From the sequence record PQ433350.1: DNA of 45,511 nucleotides. The stretch is one strand, 5' to 3'. This document shows, one piece after another, positions 11,767 through 22,993 of the stretch (positions are counted from its first letter, which is position 1; each line of letters starts with the position of its first letter). The notes below the pieces were generated by a model. That model worked only from the letters and a program-made list of their open reading frames with translations. It did not search any database and was not told where the DNA came from. The translations under genes were made by a program, and so were the position numbers. Origin of the DNA: Escherichia phage vB_Ec-G8.

Positions 11767-11789
11767 TAAAAAAACCTCCCGAAGGAGGT
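11767..11789 (-). terminator. Intrinsic terminator after primase (minus strand)
   Basis: ACCTCC-cgaa-GGAGGT hairpin with A7 on plus (T-run on minus). Confidence 0.65.
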
Positions 11790-12712
11790 TAGTCTAGTAA
11801 TTCGCTTGCTTTGTATATTCGCTTTCTTATGCCTGACTTGAAAAAATTATCATCATTTGGCATTACCACATCAAGATTGCGATCGTCAGCAACAGCGAGT
11901 AAATCAAAATCGTGGCGAGTACAAGCGATGCGTAACTTGTAGTTTCTAAGCGCGTAGGCAACCATTTCCATGTTGTAGCTGGAGTGGCAAACAAGCACGC
12001 AGCGGTTGCCAGTAGCAAGATGAACGCGAACACCATCAATCCAATTATCGACCAGATAAGCGTACTCATCACTTTTAAGGGCACCAATAACAGCAATAGA
12101 CTGGCGAGTGTAATCTTTTGCAGCATAGCTAACATCCCCCTCCTCATTGATAAACATTACATTGCACATCTCATCGGACAACCCATCACTATAGGCCATA
12201 AAACACGGTATTGCGTGTATTAGTTCGCCTGACTTCGTCCTGCCAACATCAAAACCAAACTCGCTGTAAATACCCTCGTATATACTGAGAGGAGTTGATT
12301 CTACTCTTTCCGTCCTTTCCATTATCTCTAAGCATCTTTCGTGGTCAATCTGCGCGCCCATTTTGTATGGTGATGTTCTTGAAGCTCTTTTGTTTGCTTT
12401 TGATATAACCTCTACTGGAACTAGATTCAGCCAATCACCAAGCGTATCTATTGTTTCGCTATAACTCATTCCCGAGCATTTCATAACCCAGCCAACACCA
12501 GAATCGTTGCCGCACTGGTTACATATTGCTGCGCCATTTCCCTTTTCCTGACCTAACTCATCAGTGAAGCGAAACCTATCCTTGCCAAAGCAGTGGGGGC
12601 ACGGACCATGCTTCTTGCTGAGATTCTCCTTTGTCCATCCAAGGTGCGATGAGTAGAATTCGCCCCACATTCCACTCATTTTTGCTATCACTTCATTTTT
12701 ATCATGGTGCAT
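11789..12712 (-). CDS. DNA primase (zinc-ribbon + TOPRIM)
   Basis: 307 aa; Cys/His zinc-binding cluster (HGPCPHCFGKDRF...CNQCG) followed by a TOPRIM-like acidic core; minus-strand terminator right after the stop. Confidence 0.8.
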   Translation of the reverse strand: MHHDKNEVIAKMSGMWGEFYSSHLGWTKENLSKKHGPCPHCFGKDRFRFTDELGQEKGNGAAICNQCGNDSGVGWVMKCSGMSYSETIDTLGDWLNLVPVEVISKANKRASRTSPYKMGAQIDHERCLEIMERTERVESTPLSIYEGIYSEFGFDVGRTKSGELIHAIPCFMAYSDGLSDEMCNVMFINEEGDVSYAAKDYTRQSIAVIGALKSDEYAYLVDNWIDGVRVHLATGNRCVLVCHSSYNMEMVAYALRNYKLRIACTRHDFDLLAVADDRNLDVVMPNDDNFFKSGIRKRIYKASELLD

Positions 12713-16969: not shown

Positions 16970-17221
16970 ATGTTGGGATTAGATTTTCAGCCTGAGCATT
17001 ATGATTTAGTACATGGGCAAAGTGGCGCAAAGTTTAGGGCGATACCTATTGCTGATTGGTTCCCTCCTGATTATGTAGATGTGAATGCAAAAACTAAAGA
17101 CGGTAAGTGGGTGCAGATTTACTACTCAGCAGCTTGCGGAAACCTGTGCATGACTGACCTTGACCAGAAGTTAACAATTAGTGCTGATTTGATTGACTAC
17201 TGGTTGAAAGAAGTTGAATGA
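16970..17221 (+). CDS. Hypothetical protein (83 aa)
   Basis: ORF with AAGGG RBS. Confidence 0.5.
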   Translation: MLGLDFQPEHYDLVHGQSGAKFRAIPIADWFPPDYVDVNAKTKDGKWVQIYYSAACGNLCMTDLDQKLTISADLIDYWLKEVE

Positions 17222-17304
17222 ATATCCTAATACTAGTAGCATTAGTCCCACTGTTTAGCTTTACTATCTTATATTTTATCGTAATGAATTAAGGAACTTA
17301 TATA

Positions 17305-18530: not shown

Positions 18531-19004
18531 ATGAATTGGCACGATTATTACGAATATTCAGATGGTTATTTGTACAGAAAGAACCACAAGGTATCATCTT
18601 ATAACGGAGTTAAGGCCGGGTATGTTGATTTGAGAGGTTATGTTAGGACTAAGCTGTTTTCAAAGATGACTTTTGCCCATCGAGTAATATGGGAAATGCA
18701 TAACGGAGAAGTTCCTGAAGGTATGGAGATCGATCACATTAATGGAGTTAAGCACGATAATCGGATAGAGAATTTGAGATGTGTGGATAGGTTTATCAAC
18801 TGCAAGAACGCATCAAAGAGATCTGACAACAAGAGCGGAACAACTGGAGTTAGTTATTCAAGCTCAAAGCAAAGATGGATAGTGCAATTGCAAAAAGATG
18901 GCGTTAGGGAGTCAAAATCCTTTATGGATAAATTTGACGCAGAAGTCTACGCTAAAAATTTCTACGCAGCAAACCCAGAATTTACAGAGAGGCACGGTAA
19001 ATAG
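18531..19004 (+). CDS. HNH homing endonuclease with AP2-like DNA-binding domain
   Basis: 157 aa; HNH block (AHRVIWEMHNG...IDHINGVKHDNRIENLR); own upstream element and GAGGAG RBS. Confidence 0.85.
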   Translation: MNWHDYYEYSDGYLYRKNHKVSSYNGVKAGYVDLRGYVRTKLFSKMTFAHRVIWEMHNGEVPEGMEIDHINGVKHDNRIENLRCVDRFINCKNASKRSDNKSGTTGVSYSSSKQRWIVQLQKDGVRESKSFMDKFDAEVYAKNFYAANPEFTERHGK

Positions 19005-20095: not shown

Positions 20096-20460
20096 TAATG
20101 TGCGTAGCTTTATATGGATGTTCAGCAACATCTGCTCTGACCGGATTAATTGGAAGTAAGCCTGAAGTTACGGCTCAGGCTGGTGCCGAGAACAATAAGG
20201 TTGGTGTTGGGTTAACGAACAAGGTTGACTCCAGTAACTCCAGCGATGCCACAGTTAAGGATTCCAGCGTGGGCTCACTTGATAGTTCTAGCGGGAAAAA
20301 GACTGCTGATAATTCGATTAAGGCCTCTACAATCACTGCCGAAAAGATTGAGATTACCAATAACGACTCATCAGCGCTTCCGTGGATTGGAACAGGAGCG
20401 ATGGGTTTGCTTGTTCTGATTCTCCTTGCCTTAATCTTAAGACGTAAAAAAGCCTCCTAA
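20071..20460 (+). CDS. Unimolecular spanin (lipoprotein signal + C-terminal TMD)
   Basis: 129 aa; lipobox LYGC-S at N-terminus, Ser-rich periplasmic region, C-terminal TMD (AMGLLVLILLALIL) and basic tail; overlaps the endolysin 3' end; terminator follows. Confidence 0.8.
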   Translation: MLKRIAALVMCVALYGCSATSALTGLIGSKPEVTAQAGAENNKVGVGLTNKVDSSNSSDATVKDSSVGSLDSSSGKKTADNSIKASTITAEKIEITNNDSSALPWIGTGAMGLLVLILLALILRRKKAS

Positions 20461-20476
20461 TGGAGGCTATATTTTT
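20451..20476. terminator. Bidirectional terminator between lysis cassette and ATPase operon
   Basis: AGCCTCC-taat-GGAGGCT flanked by A6 and ATATTTTT. Confidence 0.7.
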
Positions 20477-20810
20477 AGCTAAATAACTCTTCGTCAGTCA
20501 TTGTCCCTATGTTCATCATCTCTTTTATGTACTGGCTTTCATACCCGTTAAGCGCCTCAAAGTTGAAACCAAATGGCCTCTTCAAGCTACCCTTACTAAC
20601 AAACTCACCGCACTTGCCATCAATGTATCCGGCACTCAACATCTTCGCGCAGAACTCCTTTGAGGCAGCGCTGCAAAACTCTCTATGTGACAATCCTGCC
20701 GCCTTACTGAATCTCTGAGAGTCCTTATGCTGGTAGATGAATCGCGCCAAATGCTGGCGCGTAAAGTATGAATACGACTCACAGAACTTAAATATATCGA
20801 GTATGAACAT
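20475..20810 (-). CDS. Hypothetical protein (111 aa), last gene of the ATPase operon
   Basis: GGAG RBS 8 nt upstream; start is 2 nt after the stop of the upstream micro-ORF. Confidence 0.5.
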   Translation of the reverse strand: MFILDIFKFCESYSYFTRQHLARFIYQHKDSQRFSKAAGLSHREFCSAASKEFCAKMLSAGYIDGKCGEFVSKGSLKRPFGFNFEALNGYESQYIKEMMNIGTMTDEELFS

Positions 20811-20812
20811 AT

Positions 20813-20899
20813 TCAGCTCCAGATTATGTCTAATACAAATATAAGCAGTGAGATTAAAATAAGGAACCCCAAAATTACAAGAAGTATTGTTTCAAGCAT
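20813..20899 (-). CDS. Putative 28-aa single-TMD hydrophobic peptide
   Basis: MLETILLVILGFLILISLLIFVLDIIWS; ATG 3 nt after the ATPase stop, GGGGTGA SD-like upstream; not in the ORF track (below cut-off). Confidence 0.25.
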   Translation of the reverse strand: MLETILLVILGFLILISLLIFVLDIIWS

Positions 20900-20902
20900 A
20901 AA

Positions 20903-22486
20903 TCACCCCAGCAGTCGCGGATTAATGTAAACTTTATCACCAATCAGGCACGTATAGTTTTTCTCATCAAGCATTGGCAGTAAGTGATCTTTAATCTTCG
21001 TCATCACTCCAGCCTGAGCCTCGAACGGCTTAACCTTGCGAGCAGCTTCATACAATGAGCGAATACCAACTACGCCCTTACCGTTTTTGCCTTGCTTGAT
21101 CAGAATATCAATCAGCTTATTCATCTCGGCATTGTCGCCAGCGTGACCAGCTGCGTTAGCAGATGACAAATAAGTCTTGCTCAGTTCCTGAAACATAATA
21201 ACAGCTTCTTGCATCGTATCTAGCTCGATCTCTCTAGACTTACGCGGACTCCCGCCATTTGGGTTAAACCAGTTACGCACGGTATGAAGAACCGCCGCAA
21301 TTCGGATGGCCTGCTTGTCGAATTTACCCAGGGCGCCGCGCAACATTGTGTGTGAATACTTACCGCCGTCAGCAAGGTGAGGTTCCATTTCCTGACGCGC
21401 GCGGTTGAGATACTTCATTGCTGAGTTGCTCACTGTCAACTTAACATCCTGCTCATTCATTATTTCGTGAACAAGTCGGAAGTAATCAGCCTTCAATGCG
21501 CCATCAATTGGCTCGTAAGTTGAATCTCCATTTTCATCAACGAATACACGTTCGCCAAGGAATGACTTCTCGCGGACCAAAAGGAAGCGCTCAGATACAC
21601 CGATACCACGCGCACCAGCGTTCATAATAGCGTTGATTGTCTCATCCTGCGCAATTACGGAGATACAGCCCATGGCAACGAAGCTCATGTTGTTTTCTGC
21701 ATTAGCACGCGCGATAGATACGTTACCAGCATCCCATGCTTTAAGCACAAGCTCGCTGTTCGTTTTCTTTGAGCCGTCACCATAGGTCATACCAAGCAGT
21801 GAGTTTACGCTAGTCGCCTCATCAGAGATCACTGCGAAATTACCCTGGCGATTGTTTATTCGCGCAAGACCCTCAGGTGTTGTATCTGATACCGGGAATA
21901 CGATATCACATAGTTTCTCCAGTTTTTCCTCCAGCTCTTCTTTTTCCTCAAAAAGAGAGGCCATCTCTGACGGAGATTTTTCCTGCTTCATCTCTTTTGA
22001 TAACGCAGATAGTTTGGCCATAATCTTTTTGCGCTCACGCTTTCTAACTTCATTCAGCCGCTCAGTCTCAGCGATCATTGGAGAAATCGAAAGTGAGTTG
22101 ATTGCTGATTTACCAGTCGAAGGAGGCTGGCTAGTCACGACGTAAAGAGATGTTGGCTGCTGAGTCCCGTGATACTCGACAGTGAATCGGCCCAGCATAG
22201 CAGCGGAAATACACCCAAGGAAGTGCATGTATGCTGAAGACTCTGGGAACTGAACAGAGCGGGCAATATTTGCTGACAGCTTACCAACAACATCAATGTC
22301 ATTACCTAGTGAGATTACAGGGTATTTATCATTAGCCGCATCAATCTCGACCGGAGCCTTCCAGAATGATTGAGACTGGCGATAGCCATTGGCATTAATG
22401 GCGACTCGCAGTGGCGGGAGGTTGTCAGCAGCAGCAATTGCCATAACCTGTTCAACAGATAGTTTATCTTCGTTGAAATCAAACAT
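20903..22486 (-). CDS. P-loop NTPase (Walker A/B), replication-associated ATPase-like
   Basis: 527 aa; Walker A (QPPSTGKS), Walker B (FAVISDEA); GGAGAG RBS; upstream element variant with TGaTATAAT extended -10. Confidence 0.7.
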   Translation of the reverse strand: MFDFNEDKLSVEQVMAIAAADNLPPLRVAINANGYRQSQSFWKAPVEIDAANDKYPVISLGNDIDVVGKLSANIARSVQFPESSAYMHFLGCISAAMLGRFTVEYHGTQQPTSLYVVTSQPPSTGKSAINSLSISPMIAETERLNEVRKRERKKIMAKLSALSKEMKQEKSPSEMASLFEEKEELEEKLEKLCDIVFPVSDTTPEGLARINNRQGNFAVISDEATSVNSLLGMTYGDGSKKTNSELVLKAWDAGNVSIARANAENNMSFVAMGCISVIAQDETINAIMNAGARGIGVSERFLLVREKSFLGERVFVDENGDSTYEPIDGALKADYFRLVHEIMNEQDVKLTVSNSAMKYLNRARQEMEPHLADGGKYSHTMLRGALGKFDKQAIRIAAVLHTVRNWFNPNGGSPRKSREIELDTMQEAVIMFQELSKTYLSSANAAGHAGDNAEMNKLIDILIKQGKNGKGVVGIRSLYEAARKVKPFEAQAGVMTKIKDHLLPMLDEKNYTCLIGDKVYINPRLLG

Positions 22487-22543
22487 TACTTCTCTCCGTG
22501 TTGTTTCTGAGCGGCCATTATATCAGCGACCGCTTATAATTCA

Positions 22544-22562
22544 TTATCAATTTGTGCTATTT
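22544..22562 (-). promoter_or_regulatory. Boundary element variant, precedes P-loop ATPase gene
   Basis: Minus-strand AAATAGCACAAATTGATAA followed by TGaTATAAT extended -10. Confidence 0.6.
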
Positions 22563-22973: not shown

Positions 22974-22993
22974 TTTAGCAATTAGTGCTATTT
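22974..22993 (-). promoter_or_regulatory. Boundary element copy, precedes 22911 ORF
   Basis: Minus-strand AAATAGCACTAATTGCTAAA + hairpin + TCATCGAAACGAAAC leader. Confidence 0.6.

Follow-up and report, generated by a model that had tools for sequence, protein, structure and literature searches.

The closest described systems to the locus considered here are the gp09-gp10 genes of phage T1 (ST9/ST10) and the rtp67-rtp66 genes of phage Rtp, an orthologous pair sharing gene order, orientation, a convergent lysis cassette, and a bidirectional terminator, with the large gene annotated as "DNA helicase" or "DUF3987". We analyzed the corresponding locus of Escherichia phage vB_Ec-G8 (sequence record PQ433350.1), and refer to the complete 45,511-nucleotide (nt) stretch of this phage as the window. 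By sequence comparison, the phage is a T1-like coliphage (Drexlerviridae, Braunvirinae), and the region has 87-91% DNA identity to the Rtp-like coliphages CEB_EC3a, Rtp, DTL, and the BASEL "Piccard" phages. The minus strand of the window encodes a 527-amino-acid (aa) helicase homologous to T1 gp09 and Rtp67 (20903..22486) and a 111-aa homolog of T1 gp10 and Rtp66 (20475..20810), and the annotations of relatives name the two genes accordingly. Whereas 3-4 nt separate the genes in T1 and Rtp, the window has at exactly this junction an interval of 92 nt (3 + 87 + 2 nt) with a 28-codon hydrophobic open reading frame (ORF) at 20813..20899, the product of which is MLETILLVILGFLILISLLIFVLDIIWS. An earlier note on this DNA described the three ORFs as one operon, in which the tight coupling of an ATPase to a membrane peptide looked unusual for a plain replication protein. 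All three minus-strand frames are borne out by the ORF list, and so are the spacings of 3 nt between the helicase stop and the micro-ORF start (TGA-TTT-ATG) and 2 nt between the micro-ORF stop and the gp10 start (TGA-AT-ATG). Our reading of the locus differs from that of the note: we consider it probable that this is a T1-like replication-helicase operon with an inserted, independent gene for an accessory micropeptide.

Judged by gene neighborhoods, the conserved unit across the T1 family is the gp09-gp10 pair, not the trio. The junction was measured in 94 loci from GenBank and IMG/VR (the window counted), in 57 metagenome loci, and in T1. The gp10 gene lies downstream of the helicase gene in 150 of these 152 loci, the remaining two being incomplete, and the gap between the genes is 0-10 nt in 82 of the 94 loci, in 55 of the 57 metagenome loci, and in 137 of the 152 loci overall, T1 with its gap of 4 nt included. 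In the closest relatives without an insert the junction reads GGGGTGATAAATG, so that the last helicase codons and the stop codon form the Shine-Dalgarno (SD) sequence for gp10. Genes of HNH homing endonucleases occupy the same junction in phage SU57 and in three further loci (L083, L152, and L153); these HNH(-AP2-like) genes encode 171-177 aa. The SU57 insert (locus L003, 3514..4029 plus flanks) carries its own direct-repeat promoter module and a hairpin, and the insert of the other three loci is translationally coupled (TGAGGTAATTATG). The comparison thus marks the helicase-gp10 junction as an insertion hot spot, and the supposed coupling of ATPase and membrane peptide as a special system turns out to be a generic SD-stop-ATG signal, serving whatever gene follows the helicase.

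Most relatives, T1 and Rtp among them, lack the micro-ORF, which argues against a functional unit of three genes. Among the GenBank records matching the junction, 14 of 295 align through the cassette, and it was found in none of the 57 metagenome loci. The main allele class consists of homologous 27-28-aa ORFs: besides the window phage, they are present in IME253/ZL19 (MLDILLILFGFLVVISGVIFVLSMQWS), in OzMSK (MIEILLILLDFFVLIFGIVVVLSISWS), and in 2725-N35, JulesPiccard, and T145P1 (MIESILLIILGFVVT(T/I)SMLLFVLAVL(G/R)S, with V at position 12 in JulesPiccard). Unrelated alleles are found in PsgS01F (a 25-aa peptide), in locus L024 (a different 30-aa peptide), and in phiEB49 (L023), which has two tandem micro-ORFs of 35 and 29 aa. 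At least three allele classes are therefore known, and all of them, the unrelated ones included, are hydrophobic. The peptide does not co-vary with either neighbor, since CEB_EC3a, whose gp10 is 96% identical to that of the window, has no micro-ORF at its junction, and PsgS01F, whose gp10 is 95% identical, has an unrelated one.

The tandem arrangement of phiEB49 (L023/L098) points to a mode of exchange. Between its two micro-ORFs stands a 30-nt near-copy of the 3' end of the helicase gene (score 21 versus a null maximum of 15), and the stop codon of the first overlaps the ATG of the second (ATGA). We interpret this near-copy as the footprint of unequal recombination between genomes with different cassette alleles. 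Apart from this inter-cassette copy, an origin of the micro-ORF by duplication of the 5' end of gp10 or the 3' end of the helicase gene found no support (p ~0.04-0.94).

None of the ten GenBank records inspected annotates the micro-ORF, and neither of the two in phiEB49 is annotated, as its gp5 and gp6 are numbered consecutively. Common gene callers have a minimum gene length of 90 nt, and the micro-ORF, at 87 nt including the stop codon, falls below it. Searches with the micro-ORF alone (blastn with the 92 nt and tblastn with the 28 aa) against 50,697 phage records found nothing, probably due to low-complexity filtering and divergence, since the relatives emerged once the flanks were included. 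Scans of eight micropeptide alleles against Pfam, PHROGs, NCBIfam, and PADLOC yielded only noise, and we found nothing specific in the literature on the function of T1 gp09/gp10 or on small membrane proteins of Drexlerviridae. As a side observation on the relatives, PsgS01F, which is labeled a Pseudomonas phage, and Campylobacter phage A110b are 89% identical to the window across the region, and Campylobacter phage A143 and Streptococcus phage MBBL140, as they are labeled in GenBank, are 68-74% identical. T1-like phages are notorious laboratory contaminants, and the host labels of PsgS01F, A110b/A143, and MBBL140 therefore look doubtful.

Several features argue that the micro-ORF is a gene. 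The description of its product as fully hydrophobic holds for its overall character (grand average of hydropathy, GRAVY, 2.54) but overlooks five polar residues, E3, T4, S17, D24, and S28. Of the 209 ATG-initiated ORFs of 20-45 aa in the window, two reach a GRAVY of 1.8 or more, and both are located in intergenic gaps. Among the main-class alleles (n=6), the cassette is 63-66% identical in nucleotide sequence, compared with 85-93% in the adjacent 300 nt of the helicase gene and gp10. Despite this divergence, every main-class allele has its ATG 3 nt past the helicase stop, an open frame, and a hydrophobic helix, and the sole indel is of 3 nt. Pairwise nonsynonymous divergence (pN) is 0.27-0.35 versus a synonymous divergence (pS) of 0.52-0.67, and codon position 2, at which T stands in 113 of the 160 codons, accounts for 9 of 58 minimum substitutions (binomial p=0.002). 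When the window allele was randomly mutated to the observed divergence, it stayed open and hydrophobic in 2.8% of trials, and among random strings of matched composition 0.3% combine an open frame with this degree of hydrophobicity.

The signals for expression fit this picture. A near-consensus SD sequence, GGGGTGAT, is formed by the last helicase codons and the stop codon 6 nt from the ATG of the micro-ORF, the last codons of which (TGG AGC TGA) in turn contain the GGAG SD sequence for gp10. The scan revealed neither a promoter nor a terminator inside the 92-nt interval, and hence expression of the micro-ORF must come from the helicase transcript. We also considered the cassette as an RNA structure regulating gp10 and rejected this possibility, as the region folds worse than 197 of 200 shuffled sequences (z=+1.78). 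From the substitution pattern and these signals we conclude that the micro-ORF is a selected gene, predicted to be translated, for a hydrophobic helix; to this extent the suggestion of a gene for a membrane-type peptide holds, and in the phages that have it, the frame is preserved as an ORF.

The 527-aa protein is indeed a Walker-type NTPase. Its Walker A (QPPSTGKS, 22129..22106) and Walker B (FAVISDE, 21838..21818) motifs are invariant or nearly so in an alignment of 36 homologs, extending down to 35% identity, in which residues Q120, P121, P122, S123, G125, K126, S221, and E223 do not vary; the same is true of SERF (21595..21584), which is similar to the arginine-finger "SRF" of MCM proteins. 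The gene is preceded by a GGAG SD sequence at 22497..22494. The protein matches Pfam family PF13148 (DUF3987) with a score of 144.7 bits, above the gathering threshold of 27 (E=5.6e-42; positions 3-349 of the 364 in the profile), and PHROG 2373, "DNA helicase", while a sequence search of the Protein Data Bank gave nothing significant. An AlphaFold model built with the same 36 homologs (predicted local distance difference test, pLDDT, 89.9; predicted template modeling score 0.87) has an AAA+ core with an MCM-type fold, a helical hairpin of about 65 residues after the Walker A helix, and a predicted C-terminal winged helix at approximately residues 450-527, and its best structural matches are all replicative MCMs. 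The structure prediction that the earlier note had suggested for the ATPase thus yields the fold of an MCM-like replicative helicase, contrary to its doubt that this is a plain replication protein.

DUF3987 proteins are classified within helicase superfamily 6 (SF6) as phage replicative helicases with a winged helix-turn-helix at the C terminus and a usual linkage to primases (PMC4889955), and one PriCT-DUF3987 protein, AgaPH, was shown to unwind DNA in the 5'-3' direction in an ATP-dependent manner and to bind its primase-polymerase (PMC11724360). In relatives at 34-39% identity, a DnaG-type primase and/or a superfamily 2 (SF2) helicase with an exonuclease is encoded directly 3' of the helicase gene. 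Considering the family match, the MCM fold, the primase linkage in relatives, and the assayed DUF3987 member, the ATPase is most likely the replicative helicase of the phage, an activity predicted from sequence. A scan of all three proteins with PADLOC, covering defense and counter-defense systems, gave no meaningful match.

The distant modules are informative on gene order. In locus L097 (39% identity), the DUF3987 helicase gene is followed by genes for a DnaG-type primase, an SF2 helicase, and a DUF3799 nuclease; in L096, the SF2 helicase gene is directly 3' of the DUF3987 helicase gene, without a called primase. Neither module has a gp10-like gene. It appears from this comparison that the T1-like phages have such a module in split form and that gp10 was added in this family specifically. 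In the window, the primase gene stands alone at 11789..12712, 8 kb from the helicase gene, and an SF2 helicase, Erf, and exonucleases are also encoded elsewhere. According to the TLS paper, TLS and T1 have no apparent DNA polymerase gene; the window itself was not scanned for one.

The only family match of the 111-aa protein is phrog_2794 (1.7e-56 over residues 1-111). Among 1.84 billion cluster representatives, an exhaustive profile search identified just 23 relatives, and the family is therefore confined to T1-like phages. The gp10 model contains a predicted winged-helix domain (residues 1-77, with pLDDT of 81-92 in 10-residue block means over residues 1-70), in which the N-domain is basic, with a net charge of about +5 as counted from the sequence, and a disordered acidic tail with the conserved motifs RPFxF and D(D/E)ELF. 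Its fold and synteny suggest that gp10 could assist the helicase by binding DNA or a partner, or could act as an origin binder or adaptor. We rejected gp10 as a paralog of the C-terminal winged helix of the helicase (hhalign probability 0.2%, BLASTP E=11); this idea came from BFVD matches to "helicase/primase" entries of Vibrio phage Vc1, which are probably mis-assembled fusions.

The operon was proposed to have its own promoter element, TGaTATAAT. This extended -10-like sequence, TGATATAAT, is present on the minus strand at 22525..22517, but the motif alone does not occur in the window more often than chance allows (3 found versus 1.95 expected). The repeated "element" TGNTATAAT was likewise rejected, its count not exceeding chance, and the true repeated element is a 21-nt direct repeat. 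The pattern of the latter, aaATAGCACnnnTTGnTAAAA, occurs 26 times in the window versus 2.9 expected. Of the 21 intergenic copies that are co-oriented with transcription, among them those at 4785-, 15759+, 18459+, 19001+, 22560-, 22991-, 23300-, 25692+, and 43699+, 16 have a TATAAT-like hexamer (at least 5 of 6 matches) exactly 22 nt past the repeat, often with TGn, and the conserved leader CACATCGAAACGA comes next after the hexamer. The copy upstream of the helicase gene, aaATAGCACaaaTTGaTAAtg (22542..22562, minus strand), overlaps the stop codon of an upstream 116-aa ORF, and the TATAAT-like element lies exactly 22 nt past its TTGATA. Since this arrangement recurs in the window, promoter activity of the 22517..22525 element is a credible prediction.

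A consensus of the repeat has been reported for TLS, T1, and Rtp, with the function stated as unknown (PMC11447400), and throughout the family a copy precedes the helicase gene. Given the 22-nt spacing of the hexamer, TTGCTA of the repeat is 5 bp too far upstream for a normal -35 box, and the repeat module looks like a phage-specific promoter class requiring an additional factor. The terminator scan revealed no terminator between the helicase unit and the small genes upstream, so that read-through from the repeat modules at 22991, 23300, and 24477 is likely. In addition, a GC-rich imperfect inverted repeat, GCGGTC/GGCCGC (22507..22536, minus strand), brackets the TATAAT-like sequence before the helicase gene. 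Comparison of five loci (L006, L029, L031, L044, and L047) demonstrated that its stems vary by clade with complementarity kept: GTTGCCG/CGGCAAC, GGTTGCCC/GGGCAACC, GGTGCG/CGCACC, and GGTTCCGG/CCGGAACC. This inverted repeat could be an operator or a 5' hairpin.

At its other end, the unit is closed by the bidirectional terminator that had been predicted. The hairpin AGCCTCC-ATTA-GGAGGCT (20451..20468) has a 7-bp GC-rich stem with T-runs on both strands, scores as an intrinsic terminator on either strand, and folds with -14.2 kcal/mol (z=-3.77 versus shuffles). It is common to the helicase unit and the convergent u-spanin gene, and in CEB_EC3a and SU57 an ARNold terminator is annotated at the matching place. 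The antiparallel orientation to the lysis cassette is likewise confirmed, the helicase unit being convergent with the holin, endolysin, and u-spanin genes. On the plus strand, between an exonuclease gene and the lysis cassette, a further HNH endonuclease gene (phrog_99, 18531..19004) with its own direct-repeat module at 18459 matches the position of T1 gp15, adding to the picture of frequent endonuclease traffic in the region.

We propose that the region is a leftward early/replication operon, in which transcription would start at one of the approximately 21 modules composed of the direct repeat, 22 nt, and TATAAT, and would end at the bidirectional terminator common to the lysis cassette. The AAA+ hexameric-type helicase gp09 would unwind phage DNA in concert with the host polymerase and a DnaG-type primase encoded elsewhere, and gp10, encoded by a translationally coupled gene, would assist it. 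The micro-ORF would be translated by the same coupling, from the SD sequence in the helicase 3' end, and its own last codons would then serve gp10. Its product, a single hydrophobic helix, would insert into the inner membrane early in infection; we read the gene as dispensable, rapidly diverging, and exchanged by recombination as a cassette. Most likely, the peptide acts early at the membrane as an independent accessory and is not a partner of the helicase: the lack of co-variation with its neighbors, the cassette exchange, and the lack of evidence for an origin from the flanks argue for an independent gene rather than for a helicase subunit or membrane tether.

As to the target, we suggest a host membrane component. 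Superinfection exclusion or another interference with the host or its defenses fits best with the rarity, allelic diversity, and fast evolution of the peptide, and within the overall model we regard such a role as possible, though tentative. More speculatively, and with considerable doubt on our part, the junction could be a plug-in slot for coupled micro-genes, with hydrophobic peptides of 25-35 aa as hypervariable early membrane effectors in an arms race, acting in exclusion or in the neutralization of membrane defenses.

A number of points weigh against this reading. The T-rich composition eases the chance appearance of hydrophobic ORFs, and 16% of composition-matched 27-codon strings are open. 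The pN/pS ratios are rough, since synonymous divergence is saturated, and the main allele class comprises few independent lineages, about four. The peptide bears no positive charge (its charged residues are E3 and D24), in contrast to typical membrane helices of stable orientation, and both its translation and its membrane insertion are predictions. The guess of superinfection exclusion or host interference draws on analogy and on the pattern of presence, absence, and fast evolution. For the neighboring genes, the sole assayed DUF3987 helicase is a distant PriCT-fused member, and the role of gp10 is suggested by fold and synteny.

The same data bear on four other explanations. The peptide may have no function as such, the micro-ORF being either a chance frame in a spacer left by recombination and homing endonucleases or a translated relay tuning the flow of ribosomes to gp10. 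This would agree with its rarity and dispensability, with the recombination and HNH insertion at the junction, with the composition just discussed, with the lack of any matching family, and with the constraint that the downstream SD sequence places on the final two codons. However, the deficit of substitutions at codon position 2 and pN well below pS reveal selection on residues, at least three unrelated alleles each encode a single hydrophobic helix of 25-35 aa, and random strings of the same composition rarely combine an open frame with such hydrophobicity; moreover, a relay does not need a hydrophobic product. We therefore find this explanation unlikely. The earlier idea of a single system, in which the peptide would anchor or regulate one or both of its neighbors (the ATPase and the 111-aa protein) at the inner membrane, either as membrane-tethered replication or as a membrane-associated host-interference machine, draws on the gene order and tight coupling, which imply co-expression in a fixed order, and on a second hydrophobic micro-ORF, described below, that is also found in a DNA-metabolism operon, just before a gp16-type exonuclease gene. 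Membrane-anchored organizers of replication are known from other phages, such as p1 and p16.7 of phi29. Yet the peptide is missing in most relatives with near-identical helicase and gp10 (T1, Rtp, and CEB_EC3a), unrelated alleles accompany flanking proteins that are 95-99% identical, the same coupling signals serve gp10 or an HNH gene after the helicase, and PADLOC gave no matches, all of which makes a three-gene system very unlikely.

The remaining two explanations concern the neighbors of the peptide gene. That the ATPase is another AAA+ machine, active in host-DNA degradation, recombination, or counter-defense with gp10 as its specificity factor, would be in line with the place of the gene in T1-like phages, away from the primase/SF2-helicase module and among small early genes. 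The TLS paper puts the replication "helicase" label on the SF2 protein and leaves the factors of host-DNA degradation unidentified, and the helicase role of gp09 itself is a prediction from sequence and a model. Against it, every one of the top structural matches is a replicative MCM, primase linkage is a feature of the family across phages, with direct adjacency in the distant relatives, and the one assayed member is a helicase binding its primase-polymerase; we see little chance for this alternative. Finally, the peptide could be a lysis-timing factor, antiholin-like or holin-modulating, acting on the convergent cassette of holin, signal-anchor-release endolysin, and u-spanin. It adjoins this cassette and has a terminator in common with it, and many holin regulators consist of a single membrane helix. 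But its gene is on the opposite strand, within the transcription unit of the helicase and outside the lysis operon, most relatives with the same lysis genes lack it, and it has neither a charged C-terminal tail nor similarity to holin or antiholin families, so that we judge a role in lysis timing very improbable. The inserted accessory gene in a replication-helicase operon thus remains our preferred explanation.

The second hydrophobic micro-ORF of the window, at 17218..17292 on the plus strand, encodes the 24-aa peptide MNILILVALVPLFSFTILYFIVMN. Its ATG overlaps the stop codon of an upstream 83-aa ORF (ATGA), and 12 nt separate its end from the gene of a 384-aa gp16-type exonuclease. The peptide is kept in CEB_EC3a, IME253, and Rtp as MKSLILVALV(P/Q)LFSFTILYF(I/M)VMN, and T1 has a counterpart, MKLYFAVVLTPLISFSVMYFIIM, between ST17 and ST16. 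In the records of T1, Rtp, and CEB_EC3a that we inspected, this micro-ORF is unannotated.

The operon itself is ordinary, namely the replication helicase pair of a classic phage family, and a system composed of an ATPase and a membrane peptide is for this reason not worth pursuing as such. What is new is that T1-like phages, including JulesPiccard, a member of the widely used BASEL collection, appear to carry selected, unannotated genes for membrane micropeptides. Exclusion or host take-over could plausibly be the work of small early membrane peptides, and the authors of the TLS paper list the shut-off of host syntheses by T1-like phages as an open question. The junction also offers a clear natural case in which translational-coupling signals at a single site suffice for accessory genes to be inserted and exchanged.

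Compared with the SF6 DUF3987 helicases, such as AgaPH, dns of phage N4, and the Corndog helicase, the 527-aa protein is alike in its Pfam family, Walker A and B motifs, MCM-like AAA+ fold, and C-terminal winged helix, and differs in having no fused PriCT/primase domain and in the long helical hairpin that follows its Walker A helix. Small single-helix membrane proteins include the regulators KdpF, AcrZ, MgtS, and MgtR, the type I toxins Ibs, ShoB, and TisB, and Imm of phage T4, which acts in exclusion. The micropeptide resembles them in size (25-35 aa), in its one hydrophobic helix, in being overlooked by gene callers, and in its accessory, fast-evolving character, but it has no sequence similarity to them, no basic residues, and no evident antisense RNA or promoter of its own, and would be expressed by coupling within a replication operon. 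In the comparison with type I toxins, small hydrophobic peptides with an overlapping antisense RNA and their own promoter, there was no sequence match, and the scan of the strand opposite 20813..20899 detected nothing promoter-like. From holins and antiholins the micropeptide differs in having no charged tail, no family match, and a location outside the lysis cassette. A further parallel is with phage morons and homing-endonuclease insertions, which, like the micro-ORF, are polymorphic in presence and absence at a fixed junction of conserved genes. A classical moron carries its own promoter and terminator, and the HNH insert of SU57 has a promoter of the repeat type, whereas the micro-ORF has neither a promoter nor a terminator of its own and would instead use translational coupling to the conserved genes between which it lies.

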